A program made the translations under genes and the position numbers. A stretch of 64,000 nt of DNA, taken from a virus. This document shows, piece after piece, positions 5,964 to 57,879 of the stretch. Each line of letters opens with the position of its first letter. Position 1 is the first letter of the stretch. Location of the stretch: the IMG/VR virus record IMGVR_UViG_3300047323_000675; one strand, written 5' to 3'. Under the pieces are notes generated by a model that was not told the origin of the DNA, made no database searches, and saw only the letters and a list, made by a program, of their open reading frames with translations.

Positions 5964-6488
5964 TTGTTAAAATATAAGTACACTATTTGGGAATTAAAAA
6001 TGGAATATAAATTGGAAGATCTATCTATTCATCCTAAAATATTAGCAGAGAATAAATATAATAAATTTAATGATAGCACTAAAAGATATAACGAAGAATA
6101 TATGGAGTCATGGCAAAAAACCATTTATAACGATTATGGAAAAGCTTATTTCATAAATTTTAATTTTTATAATATGACTCATATTTATTCGCAACATAAG
6201 ATAAAAGGAAATCCATATTCTTGGGAAGCCGATTTACAGTTTAATTCACTTGATAATGATATGACAGTAAATATCAAAGTTTTTGGAACTCATCGTAATT
6301 TGCATTCTGTGGAAAATTTTTGTGAAAAAATGTTTAATCAAATGCAGTTTAAAAATTATGATTATTACAGTGATGAAGATGAGTATAAGCATAAAAAAGG
6401 TTTAGAAGTTATTAATGATGTAAATGAATTAGAAAAAGAACTGCCAAAATCAAATACTAAGAAAAAGAATACAAAAAGAAAAATTTAA
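5964..6488 (+). CDS. Hypothetical protein with basic C-terminal tail (likely ATG start at 6000)
   Basis: ORF followed by terminator; ends ELEKELPKSNTKKKNTKRKI. Confidence 0.75.
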   Translation: MLKYKYTIWELKMEYKLEDLSIHPKILAENKYNKFNDSTKRYNEEYMESWQKTIYNDYGKAYFINFNFYNMTHIYSQHKIKGNPYSWEADLQFNSLDNDMTVNIKVFGTHRNLHSVENFCEKMFNQMQFKNYDYYSDEDEYKHKKGLEVINDVNELEKELPKSNTKKKNTKRKI

Positions 6489-52778: not shown

Positions 52779-53759
52779 TTAGAATTGTGATTGTTCTTGG
52801 ATATAGCTTTTAACTATTTCTTTATAAGGTTCTCTTGTTAATAAAGTTCCTCTAGAAAATGGCTTGTTTTGTATCTCTGACACTTCCTTAGCTAATATAA
52901 TAGCTAATTCATTTGAACTTTTAAACTTTATATAATTATTCCTATAAGATTCAATTATTTTTTTAACGATATCTAATCTTTCATGCATTTTCTCAGATTT
53001 ATATTCGTGAACAGAAGAATATTTTTTAGGAGATGGAGGAATATCATTATTCTCATGAATCCAATCATATCTTTTTCTTTGTTTTATAAACCAAATTGTG
53101 CTTTTATGAACATTAAATTCTTTTGAGAGTTCAGTTAATGTTTTATTTTCGGCATAAAAAATATATAAAGCTTGTTCTTTTGTTAGTTTTCTCTGAATAG
53201 TATTATTTTCTAAATGACCAAATTGGCCACTATTAGGCTTTCTTAAAATATTAATATTTTCTTTTAATCGCTTTTTACCAGCACATGATTTACTGCAAAA
53301 AGCCTCTTTACAAGTTCTTTTTAGTTTATTGTCTCTAGAAAATTCTTTAGTGCAGAAGCCACATACATAAGTATATTTAGGCTTGTAGTCATCATAAAGG
53401 CTCTGAAAATTTTTAGTGTTATATTTCTGTGAAACATAATCAAATGCATACTTTAAATCTTCTTTCCTCATTACTCTAACTTTATAGCCTAATGATTCAG
53501 CTAGAGCAGTTTTTTTGTTAACACTATCTTCTTTTTCATAGCCCTTAGGCTCAATAATTGTTATTCCATCAGCTAATAAAAAATCTGGACAATAAACTAA
53601 TTTATCTTTTTTAAGTTGACCAGGAAAACGAGTAAATTTAATACCATGATCTAAAGCATGGATTGCCCAACATAATTCATAGGTTGAACCACAATATAAA
53701 CCTTTGTAATGTCCTTGCTTACTTCTTCCTGACTTTACTCTATAACCTCCACCTGGCAT
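52779..53759 (-). CDS. Putative PD-(D/E)XK endonuclease with zinc-finger and HTH modules (homing-endonuclease-like)
   Basis: STYE..., YCPDFLL...IIEPKG nuclease core; CGFC...CSKSC zinc motif; TLTELSKEFNVHKSTI HTH. Confidence 0.7.
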   Translation of the reverse strand: MPGGGYRVKSGRSKQGHYKGLYCGSTYELCWAIHALDHGIKFTRFPGQLKKDKLVYCPDFLLADGITIIEPKGYEKEDSVNKKTALAESLGYKVRVMRKEDLKYAFDYVSQKYNTKNFQSLYDDYKPKYTYVCGFCTKEFSRDNKLKRTCKEAFCSKSCAGKKRLKENINILRKPNSGQFGHLENNTIQRKLTKEQALYIFYAENKTLTELSKEFNVHKSTIWFIKQRKRYDWIHENNDIPPSPKKYSSVHEYKSEKMHERLDIVKKIIESYRNNYIKFKSSNELAIILAKEVSEIQNKPFSRGTLLTREPYKEIVKSYIQEQSQF

Positions 53760-53902
53760 ATTATTAGACTTTTAAAATGTCTAATAATATTATAAAAATA
53801 GTTGATTAAAGTCAATATTTTAAGATTAAAATAAGTGGTAAAAATTTACAGTATTTTAAAATTATATATTATGAAAAAATAGGTTTTTAAAAGGAGATTT
53901 AA

Positions 53903-54067
53903 ATGAAATTTGAAATATATAAAGATAAAAATGGAGAATGGCGTTGGAGAATTAAAGCAGCTAATGGAAAAATAATAGCTGATTCATCAGAGGGATATAA
54001 AAATAAACAAGATGCAATAAATATGATAAATGCTATTGTTGCAATTAAAGAATATAATGAAATATAA
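53903..54067 (+). CDS. YegP/DUF1508-family small protein
   Basis: Manual translation MKFEIYKDKNGEWRWRIKAANGKIIADSSEGY... (54 aa); AAGGAG RBS. Confidence 0.85.
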   Translation: MKFEIYKDKNGEWRWRIKAANGKIIADSSEGYKNKQDAINMINAIVAIKEYNEI

Positions 54068-54079
54068 TTTTTAAGCTCG

Positions 54080-54110
54080 AAAAAGAAAAGCCTACATTTC
54101 TGTAGGCTTT
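54080..54110. terminator. Bidirectional intrinsic terminator closing the tRNA operon and the YegP-like gene
   Basis: AAAGCCTACA-tttc-TGTAGGCTTT with a U-tract on the minus strand. Confidence 0.8.
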
Positions 54111-54118
54111 GTCATCGT

Positions 54119-54346
54119 TTAAACCATTTGTTCTGCTTTAGCAGTATTAATATTGTCAACATGTTTTTTTATCCATCTCATGAAAAGAATTGCTTTGTCA
54201 TCTGCTCCGAAAGAAGCATCCCCTGTGTCTGATATTGGAACTGGAAACTCAAATCCGCACTCAGTTTTGTACCATAATTCACTTTGTTGATAGCGAATAA
54301 ATTGAACTCTTTTCCCGTTGTTGACCATCTCTTTTATGCTGCTCAT
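54119..54346 (-). CDS. Small hypothetical protein, last cistron of the tRNA operon
   Basis: AAGGAG RBS; LWYKTECGFEFPVPISD...KAILFMRWIKKH; same strand, directly downstream of the array. Confidence 0.8.
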   Translation of the reverse strand: MSSIKEMVNNGKRVQFIRYQQSELWYKTECGFEFPVPISDTGDASFGADDKAILFMRWIKKHVDNINTAKAEQMV

Positions 54347-54420
54347 TATATTTCTCCTTTTATTTATAATAATGATTAATTGGTGGTAAATTAATTATAA
54401 GAAGCCACCACTTCTTATTC

Positions 54421-54495
54421 TGGCATCGCGTACGAGAATCGAACTCGTATCATTTGGTTGAAGGCCAAATATTCTCACCATTAAACTAACGCGAT
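54421..54495 (-). tRNA. tRNA-Glu(TTC), atypical C33
   Basis: Cloverleaf ATCGCGT/ACGCGAT, anticodon arm TTTGG-CCTTCAA-CCAAA, T-loop TTCGATT, encoded CCA. Confidence 0.85.
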
Positions 54496-54507
54496 ATTAA
54501 ATCTATT

Positions 54508-54601
54508 AAGAGTTTGCGGAGTCGAACCGCTTCTCTGCCTGCAAGCAGCGCATGAAGCCGACTAGTGATTGCAGTCACCAATACGCACATGCTGAACTCT
54601 T
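54508..54601 (-). ncRNA. Aberrant tRNA-like element (GCA/Cys-like loop, very long variable region, no CCA)
   Basis: Acceptor AAGAGTT/AACTCTT, T-arm GCGG-TTCGACT-CCGC, GGTGA-CTGCAA-TCACT arm, ~30-nt variable insert, weak D-arm. Confidence 0.55.
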
Positions 54602-54606
54602 TAACT

Positions 54607-54682
54607 TGGTGTCTCTAGAGGGATTTGAACCCTACATCTCCGGTGGGATTACGCGGCGATTTAACCATTAATCTATAGAGAC
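54607..54682 (-). tRNA. Glu-family tRNA body with scrambled anticodon arm (anticodon undetermined)
   Basis: Acceptor GTCTCTA/TAGAGAC + ACCA; D- and T-arms resemble the neighbouring Glu tRNAs; anticodon region CCG-CGTAATCCCAC-CGG is non-canonical. Confidence 0.7.
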
Positions 54683-54688
54683 AAAACT

Positions 54689-54772
54689 TGGTGGATGAGG
54701 TTGGATTTGAACCAACGAACCCGAAGGAAATGATTTACAGTCATCGCGCTTTAGCCACTTGCATACTCATCC
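54689..54772 (-). tRNA. tRNA-Tyr(GTA)
   Basis: G1-C72, A73, loop CTGTAAA, long variable arm, CCA; identical to 55943..56026. Confidence 0.95.
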
Positions 54773-54798
54773 ATTAAAACTATTTACTGATTAAATCT

Positions 54799-54876
54799 TG
54801 GTATCCAGTATGGGGGTTGAACCCATTTTCTCGGATTGAGAATCCGATTTCCTAACCTACCGTAGAAGAACTGGAT
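54799..54876 (-). tRNA. tRNA-Glu(CTC)
   Basis: Arm TCGGA-TTCTCAA-TCCGA; acceptor ATCCAGT/ACTGGAT; CCA. Confidence 0.9.
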
Positions 54877-54900
54877 ATAGAACTATTTACTGCATAATTT

Positions 54901-54985
54901 TGGTGGATCAGGTAGGATTCGAACCTACTCATCCGAAGAAACGGGGTTACAGCCCATCACACCTCTCCAACTGTGTCGCTGATCC
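54901..54985 (-). tRNA. tRNA-Tyr(GTA)
   Basis: Arm ATGGG-CTGTAAC-CCCGT; long variable arm; CCA. Confidence 0.92.
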
Positions 54986-55020
54986 AAATTTAAAAATTCT
55001 TTCAAAAAAATACTTAAATT

Positions 55021-55102
55021 TGGTGGATGAGGTAGGGATCGAACCTACTTGCCGAAGCCACGGAGTTACAGTCCGCTGCCCTACCATTAGAGCATCTCAT
55101 CC
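55021..55102 (-). tRNA. tRNA-Tyr(GTA)
   Basis: Arm GCGGA-CTGTAAC-TCCGT; variable arm GGCTTCGGC; CCA. Confidence 0.93.
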
Positions 55103-55107
55103 AAAAA

Positions 55108-55216
55108 TTAAGTGTATTTGCGTAGACGGAAAATCCGTTCTTCGGGATGGGTTAAGGCTCGTAGCCCCGATTCTGCAAATCCCCATTTACTAGCCAGGAG
55201 ATAAACTCACACTTAA
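55108..55216. ncRNA. Structured non-tRNA element inside the tRNA array
   Basis: Closed by TTAAGTGT/ACACTTAA; internal ATTTGC/GCAAAT, ACGGA/TCCGT and GGCT/AGCC helices; GC-rich in an AT-rich context. Confidence 0.55.
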
Positions 55217-55235
55217 AAACTTTACTACTACAATT

Positions 55236-55310
55236 TGGTATCGTGTATGGGATTCGAACCCATGTCCAAGGAGTGAAAGTCCAAGTATCCTTCCAGTAGA
55301 TGAACACGAT
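55236..55310 (-). tRNA. tRNA-Glu(TTC), weak anticodon stem
   Basis: GGA-CTTTCAC-TCC with two T.T mismatches below; acceptor ATCGTGT/ACACGAT; CCA. Confidence 0.85.
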
Positions 55311-55336
55311 ATAAAACTATTTTTATTACTTAAAAT

Positions 55337-55414
55337 TGGTGTCCCCAACGGGATTTGAACCCGTGTTTTCGGATTGAAAGTCCGACGATCTCGACCAAAC
55401 TAATCTATGAGGAC
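55337..55414 (-). tRNA. tRNA-Glu(TTC)
   Basis: TCGGA-CTTTCAA-TCCGA; CCA. Confidence 0.92.
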
Positions 55415-55440
55415 GATGAAACTTTTTACTACTTTTAAAC

Positions 55441-55525
55441 TGGTGGAGATGGATGGATTTGAACCACCGCGCCTTTTGGAAACTGATTTACAGTCAGTCG
55501 CATTCGACCCCTCTGCCACATCTCC
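55441..55525 (-). tRNA. tRNA-Tyr(GTA)
   Basis: ACTGA-CTGTAAA-TCAGT; long variable arm; CCA. Confidence 0.93.
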
Positions 55526-55548
55526 ATTAAAACTTTTACTACTTAATT

Positions 55549-55625
55549 TGGCACACCCAACGAGGATTGAACTCGTATTTTCGGATTGAAAGTCCGATGT
55601 TCTCGACCAATTAAACTATGGGTGT
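55549..55625 (-). tRNA. tRNA-Glu(TTC)
   Basis: TCGGA-CTTTCAA-TCCGA; acceptor ACACCCA/TGGGTGT; GCCA. Confidence 0.92.
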
Positions 55626-55647
55626 AAAACTTTTTACTACATTATAT

Positions 55648-55723
55648 TGGAGCACCTAACGGGGATCGAACCCGTATTTTCAGATTGAAAGTCTGACTAT
55701 CTAACCAATTAATATATAGGTGC
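55648..55723 (-). tRNA. tRNA-Glu(TTC)
   Basis: TCAGA-CTTTCAA-TCTGA; acceptor GCACCTA/TAGGTGC; TCCA. Confidence 0.92.
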
Positions 55724-55729
55724 TTTGTT

Positions 55730-55805
55730 TGGTATGGGTAACGGGATTTGAACCCGTGTCTGCGGATTGAAAGTCCGCTGATCTATCCAACTAATCTATA
55801 CCCAT
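55730..55805 (-). tRNA. tRNA-Glu(TTC)
   Basis: GCGGA-CTTTCAA-TCCGC; acceptor ATGGGTA/TACCCAT; ACCA. Confidence 0.92.
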
Positions 55806-55853
55806 GTAAATATTTACAAATTTAAAAACTCTTTATTTAAAAGTGTTTAAATT

Positions 55854-55937
55854 TGGCGTTCCGTGGGGGATTCGAACCCCAGTCTTTCGACATCACCTTG
55901 AAAGGGTGAGGACGGTTGCCGGCCGTCAACACGGAAC
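55854..55937 (-). tRNA. tRNA-Glu(TTC) with an unusual long variable arm
   Basis: TCACC-CTTTCAA-GGTGA; variable hairpin GTC-GAAA-GAC; 5-bp D-stem GACGG/CCGTC; GCCA. Confidence 0.85.
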
Positions 55938-55942
55938 ATATT

Positions 55943-56026
55943 TGGTGGATGAGGTTGGATTTGAACCAACGAACCCGAAGGAAATGATTTACAGTCATCG
56001 CGCTTTAGCCACTTGCATACTCATCC
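55943..56026 (-). tRNA. tRNA-Tyr(GTA)
   Basis: Exact duplicate of 54689..54772. Confidence 0.95.
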
Positions 56027-56053
56027 ATATTCACAACATTTACTACTTTAATT

Positions 56054-56139
56054 TGGTGGGGCAGGTAGGAATCGAACCTACAAGCCGTAAGGCGACCGCT
56101 TTACAGGCGGCTGATTTCACCACACTTACCATCTACCCC
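56054..56139 (-). tRNA. tRNA-Tyr(GTA), first tRNA of the operon
   Basis: GCCGC-CTGTAAA-GCGGT; long variable arm; ACCA. Confidence 0.93.
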
Positions 56140-56163
56140 AAATTTGCTACTTTTACTACGCTC

Positions 56164-56179
56164 AATTTTTAAAGAACAA
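56164..56179 (-). promoter_or_regulatory. boxA antitermination signal (rrn-type)
   Basis: TTGTTCTTTAAAAATT on the minus strand, 25 nt before the first tRNA; matches the TGCTCTTTAACA-type consensus. Confidence 0.8.
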
Positions 56180-56188
56180 TACTACTCA

Positions 56189-56207
56189 TGTTGTCGTTTT
56201 GACAACA
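56189..56207 (-). promoter_or_regulatory. boxB-like hairpin preceding boxA
   Basis: TGTTGTC-AAAAC-GACAACA perfect 7-bp stem. Confidence 0.6.
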
Positions 56208-56210
56208 CTA

Positions 56211-56246
56211 CAAAAACAAAAAAGGCACCAATTTCTCGGTGCCTTT
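56211..56246 (-). terminator. Attenuator terminator (segments 3:4) between the leader ORF and the tRNA array
   Basis: AAAGGCACC-GAGAAATT-GGTGCCTTT followed by TTTGTTTTTG. Confidence 0.9.
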
Positions 56247-56380
56247 GATTTACTTCTTACTTACTTGTCAGAGTGAACTCAGTTAATATAAACTTGGGTT
56301 TCCTTGTTTACATTAACCTTTGCATCAACACTATCTGAACGAGCAAAAGTAAATGCGACACCGTTGGTGTTCATTTCCTC
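56237..56380 (-). promoter_or_regulatory. Attenuator RNA switch: 1:2 protector and 2:3 antiterminator
   Basis: 1:2 = GAG-G-AAATG-A-ACACC / GGTGT-CG-CATTT-A-CTT. 2:3 = CGGTGTC/GGCACCG, ATTTACTT/AAGTAAAT and TTGCT/AGTAA; it uses the terminator 5' arm. Confidence 0.8.
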
Positions 56381-56413
56381 TCGTTCATAATAATAAGTGT
56401 TCATGCGGTTCAT
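56279..56413 (-). CDS. Tyr/Glu-sensing leader peptide (44 aa)
   Basis: MNRMNTYYYEREEMNTNGVAFTFARSDSVDAKVNVNKETQVYIN*; codons TAT TAT TAT GAA CGA GAG GAA; GAGAGA RBS; lies between promoter and terminator. Confidence 0.85.
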   Translation of the reverse strand: MNRMNTYYYEREEMNTNGVAFTFARSDSVDAKVNVNKETQVYIN

Positions 56414-56460
56414 GTTATTTCTCTCAAATAAATAAGTTTGTCTAAATCTTCAATGTAATC

Positions 56461-56489
56461 ATTATGCCTCAGTTGCAATTCCGTGTCAA
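56461..56489 (-). promoter_or_regulatory. sigma70 promoter P2 of the leader/tRNA operon
   Basis: TTGACA-N17-CATAAT with an AT-rich upstream tract. Confidence 0.85.
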
Positions 56490-56568
56490 TAGGTTTCTTC
56501 AAAATATTTTTATTGTTTCAAAAAAACAACACATGACACTTGTTGCTCAACTGCATTCAATGAAGTGA

Positions 56569-56598
56569 ATTATATATTAAATTTCAATTAGGTGTCAA
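56569..56598 (-). promoter_or_regulatory. Candidate upstream sigma70 promoter P1
   Basis: TTGACA-N18-TATAAT about 110 bp upstream of P2. Confidence 0.6.
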
Positions 56599-56605
56599 AC
56601 AATAT

Positions 56606-56854
56606 TTATAATTTACTATGTTTGGAATATACATGATGAGAAAAGCCAGCAAACATAAAAAATGAGATAACAGCCAAGCAAACACATATAAGAATTACTA
56701 CTGCTTGAAAAAAAGAATAATTCCATGTTTTCATCATTATTACTAAAACCATTAAAATTGATATAGCACAATATCCCATAACCATAAGCATAATTCCAAT
56801 TGGACATAAAGCGAATAATTTTAATTCATACCAAAAATTTTTTAGTTTATTCAT
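56606..56854 (-). CDS. Small membrane protein
   Basis: Two hydrophobic segments. Confidence 0.6.
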   Translation of the reverse strand: MNKLKNFWYELKLFALCPIGIMLMVMGYCAISILMVLVIMMKTWNYSFFQAVVILICVCLAVISFFMFAGFSHHVYSKHSKL

Positions 56855-56994
56855 AATATACCTATTCTATTGAGTTTAGATATTAGAGGTAAGTTCAAAA
56901 TAGTCAATAGTATGCTTAGTCTTAAAAATATGCCATATTGTATTGATAAGAAGATAAGAGTATAATTATTAGAATAATATATGAAGGAATCATT

Positions 56995-57879
56995 ATGAAA
57001 ATCAAAGAAATATTAACCTCAGCAGAAGATAAGTCTGTGAACTTTATCTATGACAATTGGATAGAGGCTAGATTTGTAAGAAGAGAAGCTGATTACTTCA
57101 TTATTTATCTTTCATCGCATGATGGTTGTAATAAGGCATGTCGTTTCTGCCATTTAACTCAAACAAAACAAACTTCTTTCAATCGGGTAACAATAGAAGA
57201 ATATCTAATGCAAGCTGAAGATGTCTTGAATTACTACGACTCAATTAAAAATAACCAAGGTGCTGCAAAAAGGGTTAACTTTAATTTTATGGCTAGAGGA
57301 GAAGCCCTAGCTAACCAAGTTATTTTGGAGAATGCTAAAGAATTATTTTCTAGTTTGGAAAATTTAGCATTAAAAAGAGGTTTAAGTGCAAGATTTAATA
57401 TTTCAACAATTATGCCAATGGAAATAGAATCAAAAGATTTGGCTGATATTTTCAAGGATGTTACTCAAGATTATGGGATTTATTATTCACTATATAGTGT
57501 CGATGATAAATTTAGGAAGCGCTGGCTACCGAAAGCTTTAAATTATGAAGTAGCACTAAAAAAATTAGAAGAATTACAGCTAAAAAGAGGAGCAGATATT
57601 GCCTTCCATTGGGCATTTATTGAAGGTGAAAATGATAGTAAAGAAGATTTAGATGAATTAAAGAATGTCTTGTCTAATTACAACATTAAGGCCAAGTATA
57701 ATTTAGTAAGATATAATCCCTATAGTTCCAATCAAGGGAAAGAACCAACAGAGGATGTTTTGCAGTATAATTTTAATGAATTAAATGAATTTTTTAAAAG
57801 TCCTGCATCTAGAATTGTTCCTCGTGTTGGATTTGATGTTAAAGCCTCATGTGGGATGTTTGTAATCAATAATAATTGA
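56995..57879 (+). CDS. RlmN/Cfr-like radical SAM enzyme (divergent, lacks the resolving Cys)
   Basis: LSSHDGCNKACRFC, FMARGEAL (cf. MGMGEPL), IEGEND, NLVRYNP, C-terminal ASCG; Tyr at the RlmN C118-equivalent position. Confidence 0.8.
   Translation: MKIKEILTSAEDKSVNFIYDNWIEARFVRREADYFIIYLSSHDGCNKACRFCHLTQTKQTSFNRVTIEEYLMQAEDVLNYYDSIKNNQGAAKRVNFNFMARGEALANQVILENAKELFSSLENLALKRGLSARFNISTIMPMEIESKDLADIFKDVTQDYGIYYSLYSVDDKFRKRWLPKALNYEVALKKLEELQLKRGADIAFHWAFIEGENDSKEDLDELKNVLSNYNIKAKYNLVRYNPYSSNQGKEPTEDVLQYNFNELNEFFKSPASRIVPRVGFDVKASCGMFVINNN

Follow-up and report, generated by a model that had tools for sequence, protein, structure and literature searches.

Leader-peptide attenuators of the kind found in front of amino acid operons and pheST (trpL, hisL, pheL, leuL, thrL, ilvL and pheM) share a common anatomy: close to the promoter lies a short open reading frame (ORF) with a series of cognate codons, placed within segment 1 of a leader RNA that can form the mutually exclusive structures 1:2, 2:3 and 3:4, and an intrinsic terminator lies before the structural genes. 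What these leaders sense is how much charged tRNA reaches the ribosome. To our knowledge, the described members all control genes for amino acid biosynthesis or for aminoacyl-tRNA synthetases. Here, we analyse a locus at positions 54080–56598 of a 64,000-nt stretch of viral DNA (IMG/VR record IMGVR_UViG_3300047323_000675; ‘the window’ refers to this stretch at its full length), in which a leader of similar design stands before an array of tRNA-Tyr and tRNA-Glu genes. Judging from its sequence and its modelled folding, we consider it likely that this leader is a ribosome-mediated transcription attenuator of the trp/his/pheST type that controls tRNA genes.

The likeness to the trpL type covers the promoter-proximal ORF, the cognate codon run inside segment 1, the putatively exclusive 1:2, 2:3 and 3:4 structures, the terminator ahead of the structural genes and, presumably, the charged-tRNA signal; that the leader mixes codons for more than one amino acid has precedent in thr and ilv. 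There are also clear differences. The regulated genes encode tRNAs and one small protein instead of an enzyme or a synthetase, meaning that the output is the sensed molecule itself and the feedback loop would be direct. Moreover, at 31–44 codons the leader ORF is longer and extends through segment 2, an additional helix (H0) links the 5′ untranslated region (UTR) to a segment 3a, and a boxA-like site follows the terminator. The point of novelty is the regulated gene class: control of enzymes and synthetases is what the known members happen to share, and the mechanism does not require it.

A long tRNA array that is silent by default is known from Anabaena sp. PCC 7120, where the trn operon with its 26 tRNA genes is induced under translational stress and is controlled by TrcR, a ribbon-helix-helix (RHH) repressor binding direct repeats at the promoter (PMC8421152; PMC10272220). 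Like the array considered here, as we read it, the trn operon is a redundant set of tRNA genes on an accessory replicon that is off by default and on when translation is impaired. However, it has neither a leader ORF nor a terminator switch, it comprises 26 tRNA genes as opposed to two specificities, and its control point is the promoter rather than a conserved leader-terminator switch. Phage tRNAs, in turn, counter tRNA-targeting defences, with T5 tRNA-Tyr acting against the PtuAB proteins of retron-Eco7 and tRNA-Lys against PrrC, according to the consulted sections of the respective reports (PMC11555353; PMC10264068). These anti-defence tRNAs share with our locus the extra copies of particular tRNAs including tRNA-Tyr, the diversified isodecoders and a jumbo-phage-like setting; in contrast, the consulted sections on T5 attribute protection by tRNA-Tyr to a strong promoter and describe no sensing element (PMC11555353).

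T-box riboswitches, finally, also are leader RNAs in which a choice between terminator and antiterminator responds to tRNA status. The leader described here differs in that it has no specifier loop or T-box sequence, that sensing would proceed via the translating ribosome and that the output is tRNA and not a synthetase. The T-box option was rejected since positions 53500–57500 show no Rfam T-box match even at E <= 1, and the same region has no credible match to any Rfam cis-regulator. The earlier note on this DNA, which had proposed the attenuator, knew of no leader peptide that drives a tRNA array, and our literature search agrees: no attenuator preceding tRNA genes was found described in the full-text literature searched, the coverage of which is incomplete, so that this is absence of evidence only.

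All parts of the operon lie on the minus strand. Its leader ORF has 44 codons (MNRMNTYYYEREEMNTNGV...; 56413–56279) and begins with an ATG at 56413, 7 nt downstream of a Shine-Dalgarno-like GAGAGA (56425–56420). Codons 7–13 (56395–56375) read TAT TAT TAT GAA CGA GAG GAA, i.e. YYYEREE, and the array that follows (54421–56139) contains 14 tRNAs according to ARAGORN, namely six Tyr(GTA), seven Glu(TTC) and one Glu(CTC). With the amino-acid usage of the window (Tyr 4.2%, Glu 7.6%), the chance of meeting at least three Tyr and at least three Glu within seven residues of a 44-aa ORF is ~1.6e-4, and no such Tyr/Glu stretch occurs in 17,639 aa of window ORFs. The earlier note had equated the amino acids clustered in the leader with the two specificities of the array, a coincidence that this estimate renders hard to ascribe to chance. 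It had also listed promoters, the 44-aa leader, a terminator, boxB and boxA, 14 tRNAs, a small ORF and a second terminator, every one of which lies on the minus strand where the note had placed it.

The pairing of leader and array is not confined to the window. A search with the 44-aa peptide returned six close homologues, a metagenome scan added a distant relative with a 32-aa peptide (L011), and a profile search of 1.84 billion representative proteins yielded eight more diverged leader peptides. The distinct leaders total 13, including that of the window; the 12 further versions come from metagenomes, and no homologue was found in reference genome or virus collections, IMG/VR included. In 12 of the 13, the next genes are Tyr or Glu tRNAs. 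Copy number shifts quickly, as the relatives' arrays hold from three to 15 genes, while 86 of the 87 tRNAs in leader-associated arrays are Tyr(GTA) or Glu(TTC/CTC). The one exception is an Arg(ACG) tRNA in the L011 array; a tRNA of this type reads CGA after A-to-I editing. No array follows the thirteenth leader (L065/L066) within 800 nt, which is explained by an insertion of ~420 bp that splits its terminator. This insertion, at ~340–800 of L066, is bounded by the inverted repeats gcaagcccctctgaaagtgtgttg / caacacactttcagaggggcttg and has the look of a miniature inverted-repeat transposable element (MITE). Homologous arrays devoid of the Tyr/Glu run, which the earlier note had named as grounds for giving up its proposal, were looked for in this family, and YYYEREE proved invariant.

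Within the peptide, conservation is concentrated on the run. Twelve leader peptides could be aligned with a mean column identity of 44%, and the only invariant columns are Y7, Y8, Y9, E10, R11, E12 and E13, plus V19. At the nucleotide level, the 21-nt run shows just three changes across the family, all of them synonymous exchanges between the Glu codons GAA and GAG: GAA to GAG at codon 13 and, in L068, GAA to GAG at codon 10 and GAG to GAA at codon 12. Of the 63 single-nucleotide changes that the run could undergo, ~10 (~16%) are synonymous by our own count, so that three out of three would be unlikely (~0.004) without selection on the encoded residues. The central CGA is invariant as well, even though this codon is rare in the DNA of the window (2.0 per 1000 codons, ~6% of Arg codons). 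Together with the Arg(ACG) tRNA in one relative, this suggests that the sensor originally covered Tyr, Glu and Arg.

The signals for translation of the run are likewise kept. A Shine-Dalgarno-like purine run and an ATG occur at a fixed distance in all 13 leaders, with differing sequences: GAGAGA, or AGGAA and AAGGA in distant relatives. AAGGA-type Shine-Dalgarno motifs are common at start sites in the window, indicating that bacterial-type expression signals apply. The codons between the called start and the run vary, and the run begins 3–6 codons into the ORF (5–6 in most leaders). The remainder of the peptide is far less constrained: the homologues measure 31–44 aa, two were called with longer N-terminal extensions, both termini are variable, and the C-terminal part differs across the family in sequence, length and even frame, which is what one expects of a leader peptide but not of a functional protein.

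Control at the level of the leader presupposes that the array lacks a promoter of its own. Two sigma-70 promoters precede the leader, P1 (TTGACA-18-TATAAT; 56598–56569), which matches the consensus at 12/12 positions and is kept in close relatives only, and P2 (TTGACA-17-CATAAT; 56489–56461) with 11/12 matches, from which transcription would start near 56454. A TTGACA promoter 5′ of the leader is present in all relatives, including the distant ones. Between the leader terminator and the tRNA genes, on the other hand, the only promoter candidate has a 9/12 match and is not kept in L007 or L011, and comparison of the window with the relatives revealed no conserved promoter in this interval; the array therefore appears to depend on read-through.

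The leader transcript (~56454–56217) is highly structured, with a minimum free energy (MFE) of −79.3 kcal/mol compared to −41.8 +/− 4.0 kcal/mol for dinucleotide shuffles (z = −9.3). It folds into four helices. H0, present in both the MFE and the centroid fold, joins the 5′ UTR strand (56448–56421), which includes the Shine-Dalgarno-like sequence, to the 29 nt that precede the terminator, i.e. segment 3a between the leader stop and the terminator (56275–56247). H1 is a long hairpin whose 5′ arm, segment 1 (56406–56366), holds the codon run and whose 3′ arm, segment 2 (56362–56322; GGUGUC GC AUUUACUU ...), also complements segments 3a and 3b. Both H1 and H0 are long, imperfect helices of 25–35 bp. 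The hairpin H2 (56318–56281) falls within the 3′ portion of the leader ORF, and the intrinsic terminator (segments 3b:4; 56246–56211) consists of AAAGGCACCGA-GAAA-UUGGUGCCUUU with an 11-bp stem and a U-tract. Every leader folded preserves H1 and the terminator, while the absence of H2 from the distant relative L011 indicates that H2 is not essential to the design. RNAalifold retains H1, H2 and the terminator, and two synonymous changes within H1 stay compatible with pairing. In the terminator of L008, GGCACC/GGUGCC has become GACACC/GGUGUC, a compensatory change, and other variants exist in L067 and L068.

Segment 2 can instead pair with segment 3, in a duplex of −17 to −27 kcal/mol (z of −2.3 to −4.6 versus shuffles), and in 10 of 11 leaders its partner is the best or a near-best 45-nt window of the leader's own locus. 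This pairing has two parts. GGUGUC pairs with G(G/A)CA(C/U)C in the loop-proximal half of the terminator arm, thereby removing the nucleation site of the terminator hairpin, and the rest of segment 2 pairs with the stretch preceding the terminator, e.g. AUUUACUU:AAGUAAAU and UCAGA:UCUGA. Per-sequence duplexes uncover several compensatory cases, including a G-C to A-U change at position 1 of segment 2 in L067, an A-U to G-C change at position 13 in L067 and L068, and a change in the extension from UCAGA:UCUGA to UUUAGA:UCUAAA in L008; in L011, the extension differs in sequence from that of the window and is complementary again. In other words, segment 1 is frozen, segment 2 drifts and segment 3 follows.

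As the run forms part of the H1 5′ arm, a modelled ribosome stalled there covers segment 1 and frees segment 2. To represent this state, the transcript was cut before the 3′ arm of the terminator and the ribosome footprint was masked. In eight of nine leaders, the pairing probability of the terminator 5′ arm rises from 0.02–0.24 without a ribosome to 0.70–0.99 with a ribosome at Glu codon 10, the new partner of the arm being segment 2.

Several observations weigh against an attenuator. The codon run is part of H1, and some of its nucleotide invariance could thus be structural. The GAGAGA of the window is a weak Shine-Dalgarno sequence and is sequestered in H0 in the mature fold, and in contrast to trpL the leader ORF extends well beyond segment 2. 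There are few relatives, which stem from one lineage of elements. Regarding the alternative pairing, the segment 2:3 duplex of L069 ranks only 24th of 647, and a column-wise covariation test (alignment A2) gave no both-sided changes; in that alignment, 82% of cells are paired compared to 38–47% in slid controls, with a structure derived from one aligned sequence, and the test is limited by the poor alignment of the stretch preceding the terminator. In the ribosome model, L068 is an outlier in that its terminator arm is already paired when no ribosome is present, and placing the A site at Glu codon 13 produces a weak switch in the window leader (0.12) and in L003 (0.38). Finally, full-length folds with a masked ribosome keep the terminator as the minimum-energy structure, which means that the antiterminator could act only kinetically. 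The trp antiterminator likewise acts kinetically.

These points invite explanations that dispense with the proposed switch or change its signal. The leader might constitute a structured small RNA that stands on its own, or the gene of a small protein, in either case with a dedicated terminator; the array would then be expressed by constitutive, leaky read-through, and the codon run would be a by-product of H1. The exceptional degree of structure, the terminator as the minimum-energy state in all full-length folds, the near-invariance of the run's nucleotides inside a helix arm and the nil result for column-wise covariation of the alternative pairing all sit well with such a view. It does not account, however, for the double role of the H1 3′ arm, which in 10 of 11 leaders also is the best or a near-best complement to the region of the terminator 5′ arm, complete with compensatory changes, nor for the constancy of segment 1 in the face of a drifting segment 2 whose changes segment 3 tracks. 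A Shine-Dalgarno sequence and an ATG kept ~5–6 codons before the run despite their differing sequences, together with run changes that are without exception synonymous in a run that spells the amino acids of the array, point to translation, whereas the poor conservation of the rest of the peptide, with its shifts of frame and length, speaks against a functional protein. We therefore hold this explanation to be improbable. The probability is lower still, and in our view very small, that H1 and H0 are simply targets of a protein or an RNase, be it as stems processed by RNase III, like those of rRNA operons, or as the site of an element-encoded antiterminator, with no ribosome switch involved. 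The operon does imitate rrn leaders in its tandem promoters, boxB-like hairpin and boxA-like site, and both helices have the required length and imperfect pairing; yet upstream neighbours differ between loci and no conserved partner gene adjoins the leader, and the amino-acid invariance of the run, the kept frame and the 2:3 complementarity would be left unexplained. Besides, binding or cleavage of this kind is compatible with an attenuator and does not exclude it.

The anatomy would be the same if the leader were a translation-dependent attenuator that reports general translation stress, such as slow ribosomes, antibiotics or host shut-off, and not the supply of Tyr and Glu tRNAs, as any slowing of ribosomes over segment 1 would free segment 2. 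The array would then be a stress-induced tRNA supplement like the Anabaena trn operon, and it is translation stress that induces the one silent tRNA array studied in depth (PMC8421152; PMC10272220). The rare CGA codon, too, would slow ribosomes generally. Nevertheless, a general sensor needs no Tyr or Glu codons, whereas YYYEREE is the only invariant block besides a single Val, and the run matches the two specificities of the array across lineages against the odds given above, for which reason we judge a general stress sensor unlikely.

We thus return to an attenuator that responds to Tyr and Glu tRNAs. The earlier note had proposed that such a device gates an array of Tyr and Glu tRNA genes, and the regulatory half of this proposal has gained from the conserved linkage of leader and array, the invariant YYYEREE, the synonymous changes, the compensated terminator and the conserved geometry of hairpin, antiterminator and terminator; its description of the array needs amending, as non-canonical elements are present too. 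From in silico evidence, which comprises the conserved anatomy, the codon run, the compensatory changes and pairings that are modelled as mutually exclusive, we infer leader translation, ribosome stalling, read-through, the role of the boxA-like site and the physiological trigger, which would combine as follows. Transcription would start at P2 (and P1), yielding a nascent leader in which codons 7–13 of the ORF lie in segment 1. As long as charged Tyr and Glu tRNAs are plentiful, the ribosome would reach the stop codon just before segment 3a, H1 would re-form behind it, the terminator 3b:4 would fold and an RNA of ~240 nt would be released. When charged tRNA-Tyr or tRNA-Glu is scarce, and possibly also the CGA-reading tRNA-Arg, the ribosome would stall on the run and hold segment 1, allowing the freed segment 2 to pair with 3a and 3b and to cover the loop-proximal half of the terminator 5′ arm, so that the terminator could not nucleate. 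A trailing ribosome at the start site would meanwhile stop the 5′ UTR from competing for segment 3a via H0. RNA polymerase would then read through, pass the boxB/boxA-like site, where a Nus-type complex would probably load, and continue into the untranslated 1.7-kb array ahead to produce Tyr and Glu tRNAs and the 75-aa protein. As the new tRNAs would relieve the stall, the circuit would amount to a negative-feedback homeostat for two tRNA specificities.

The region between the terminator and the first tRNA gene fits this scheme. A boxB-like hairpin, GUUGUC-AAAAC-GACAAC (56206–56190), read from the sequence, is kept in close relatives, and it is followed by the boxA-like element TGTTCTTTAAAAA (56178–56166), which agrees at 11 of 13 positions with the E. 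coli rrn boxA, TGCTCTTTAACAA; the corresponding TGCTCTTTAAAAA of L011 and L069 agrees at 12 of 13. GTTCTTTAAAAA (56177–56166) is the sole match to GYTCTTTAAMAA in the 64-kb window, where 0.28 would be expected, and the boxA-like element is retained in L003, L007, L011, L063, L069 and L070. As in rrn operons, where a long untranslated unit begins downstream of tandem promoters, a boxA-like 13-mer is preceded by a hairpin; different from rrn, it is located behind a regulated terminator and before tRNA genes only. By analogy, the site probably recruits a Nus complex that shields the untranslated array from Rho.

As for the array itself, the earlier note had described it as consisting of only Tyr and Glu tRNAs, which holds for all 14 ARAGORN calls and is slightly too strong for the array as a whole, given three non-canonical tRNA-like or structured elements and one ‘Glu’ tRNA with a long variable arm. 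The Rfam tRNA model places 12 of the 14 tRNAs above the gathering score. In Rfam, the tRNA-Tyr at 55021–55102 has only a sub-threshold tRNA-Sec match, the Glu(CTC) at 54799–54876 falls below the threshold and the long-arm Glu at 55854–55937 is not matched. All array tRNAs have a 7-nt anticodon loop and an encoded CCA. Pairwise identity amounts to 52–68% among the Tyr genes, save one exact duplicate, and to 39–78% among the Glu genes, and the array tRNAs are old, diverged copies. Such diversity fits an isodecoder panel as discussed for nuclease evasion (PMC10264068), and is no proof by itself. The duplicate comprises the Tyr genes at 55943–56026 and 54689–54772 (minus strand), which are 100% identical while the others are 52–68% alike, arguing for a recent duplication in a fast-changing array. 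Demand from codon usage is not enough to explain why Tyr and Glu were chosen, as AAA and AAT (90 and 75 per 1000 codons) are commoner in the window than GAA and TAT (63 and 37) and ARAGORN found no Lys or Asn tRNA within the window. A search of phage records for near-identical DNA matched only one tRNA-Tyr, with 93% identity to Ralstonia phage RSP15.

The unusual members of the array deserve a brief description. The long-arm tRNA (55854–55937, minus strand) measures 84 nt and has a UUC anticodon and a long variable arm; its acceptor stem comprises 8 bp and its T stem 4 bp. It recurs at 6387–6470 of L011 with compensatory changes in the acceptor stem (GTTCCGTG/CACGGAAC versus GTCGCATG/CATGCGAC), and this allo-tRNA-like molecule could be charged with an amino acid other than Glu. 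A tRNA-like gene at 54607–54682 (minus strand), which the Rfam tRNA model picks up at 54610–54682 with 46 bits, has normal acceptor, D and T arms, with CCA encoded in the window copy, and also occurs in L006 (7019–7094) and L009 (2260–2335); as its anticodon arm is aberrant (CCG-CGUAAUCCCAC-CGG), no anticodon can be assigned. Next to it, a tRNA-like RNA of 94 nt (~54508–54601, minus strand) has a T arm and no CCA and is conserved in L003 and L005. The third element is a GC-rich structured stretch of ~109 nt (55108–55216, minus strand) that fills a tRNA-sized slot and has no tRNA features.

The last gene of the operon is a 75-aa ORF (54346–54119, minus strand), followed by the operon terminator (54110–54087). 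The ORF belongs to PHROG 20427 (E = 6e-32), a family of GAP32-, XacN1- and CBB-like phages, and in L011, L003, L005, L006 and L063 it likewise follows the array. Annotation of XacN1 and RsoM2USA had given the impression that the gene is not linked to tRNAs, which was ruled out by running ARAGORN on 50 IMG/VR jumbo-phage loci with a homologue: tRNA genes lie within 5 kb in 46 of them, and in 24 a same-strand tRNA ends <=60 nt before the homologue starts. No leader-like sequence was found near these 50 homologues. The protein has no Pfam family, no sequence match in the PDB and no Foldseek match at E <= 0.001; its predicted fold (pLDDT, i.e. predicted local distance difference test, of 83.7) is a small beta sheet with a C-terminal helix. 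It may be a tRNA-related factor.

Divergent from the operon, a radical-SAM gene (56995–57879, plus strand) belongs to PHROG 27142, known from phiKZ- and CcrColossus-like phages and annotated as RlmN-like in some phages. A radical-SAM gene also occurs a few genes 5′ of the L005 leader. The PHROG 27142 protein may be a tRNA or rRNA modification enzyme. Used as a synteny anchor in IMG/VR, the radical-SAM neighbour revealed no relatives of the locus. Both this gene and the 75-aa ORF have their best relatives in jumbo phages. At the other end, a 54-aa ORF of the DUF1508 (YegP-like) family (53903–54067, plus strand) converges on the operon, and a DUF1508 ORF likewise lies 3′ of the 75-aa gene in L006. 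Near other leaders, an orphan gene for initiation factor 3 (IF3) is found shortly 5′ of the leader in L008 (930–1454), L011 (4498–5040), L063 (1643–2185) and L068 (2645–3181), its nearest protein-atlas cluster being 47% viral (Uroviricota), and a cysteinyl-tRNA synthetase (CysRS) gene lies 3′ of the operon in L063. Judging from these neighbours, the cassette seems to belong to a small ‘translation island’. The window as a whole has ~27% G+C, with 24–34% outside the array, and is rich in paralogues with ankyrin, DUF285 and DUF4116 domains; it further carries LuxR, TrxB-like, R2K ATP-grasp and MoxR-like genes, and no housekeeping genes were seen in its 64 kb. The longest contigs listed for the protein clusters of the window leader and of a close relative's leader measure 2,230,803 and 2,217,227 bp, and some relatives come from NCBI assemblies with very high contig accession numbers (e.g. 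JACCDQ010479254), which to us suggests samples associated with eukaryotes.

It is tempting to place the cassette in the conflict between virus and host, as the earlier note did in speaking of back-up tRNAs and of colicin E5, PtuAB and RloC-type nucleases. On a reading that we offer tentatively and as a whole regard as rather doubtful, it would be a self-contained sense-and-respond module for counter-defence, carried by a giant phage-related element of ~2.2 Mb. An anticodon nuclease of the host or of a rival would destroy tRNA-Tyr and tRNA-Glu, and ancestrally the CGA-reading tRNA-Arg, upon which ribosomes would stall on the leader as on a decoy. The response would consist of sequence-diversified, nuclease-evading isodecoders and the 75-aa protein, and expression would cease once decoding recovers, making this the first ribosome-operated inducible tRNA homeostat.

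Whatever the trigger, the proposed attenuator makes sharp predictions: exchanging the codons of the run should redirect the response to other tRNAs, and the response should be lost and regained with compensatory mutations. If it operates as proposed, a shortage of a tRNA switches on the genes for that same tRNA, closing the loop on tRNA supply, and tRNA abundance would be regulated autonomously, specificity by specificity, by a compact and portable sensor that could in principle be retargeted by a few codon changes. The accessory tRNA arrays of phages and giant elements, which have been discussed as counter-defence against tRNA nucleases, would thereby gain an inducible mode of control.

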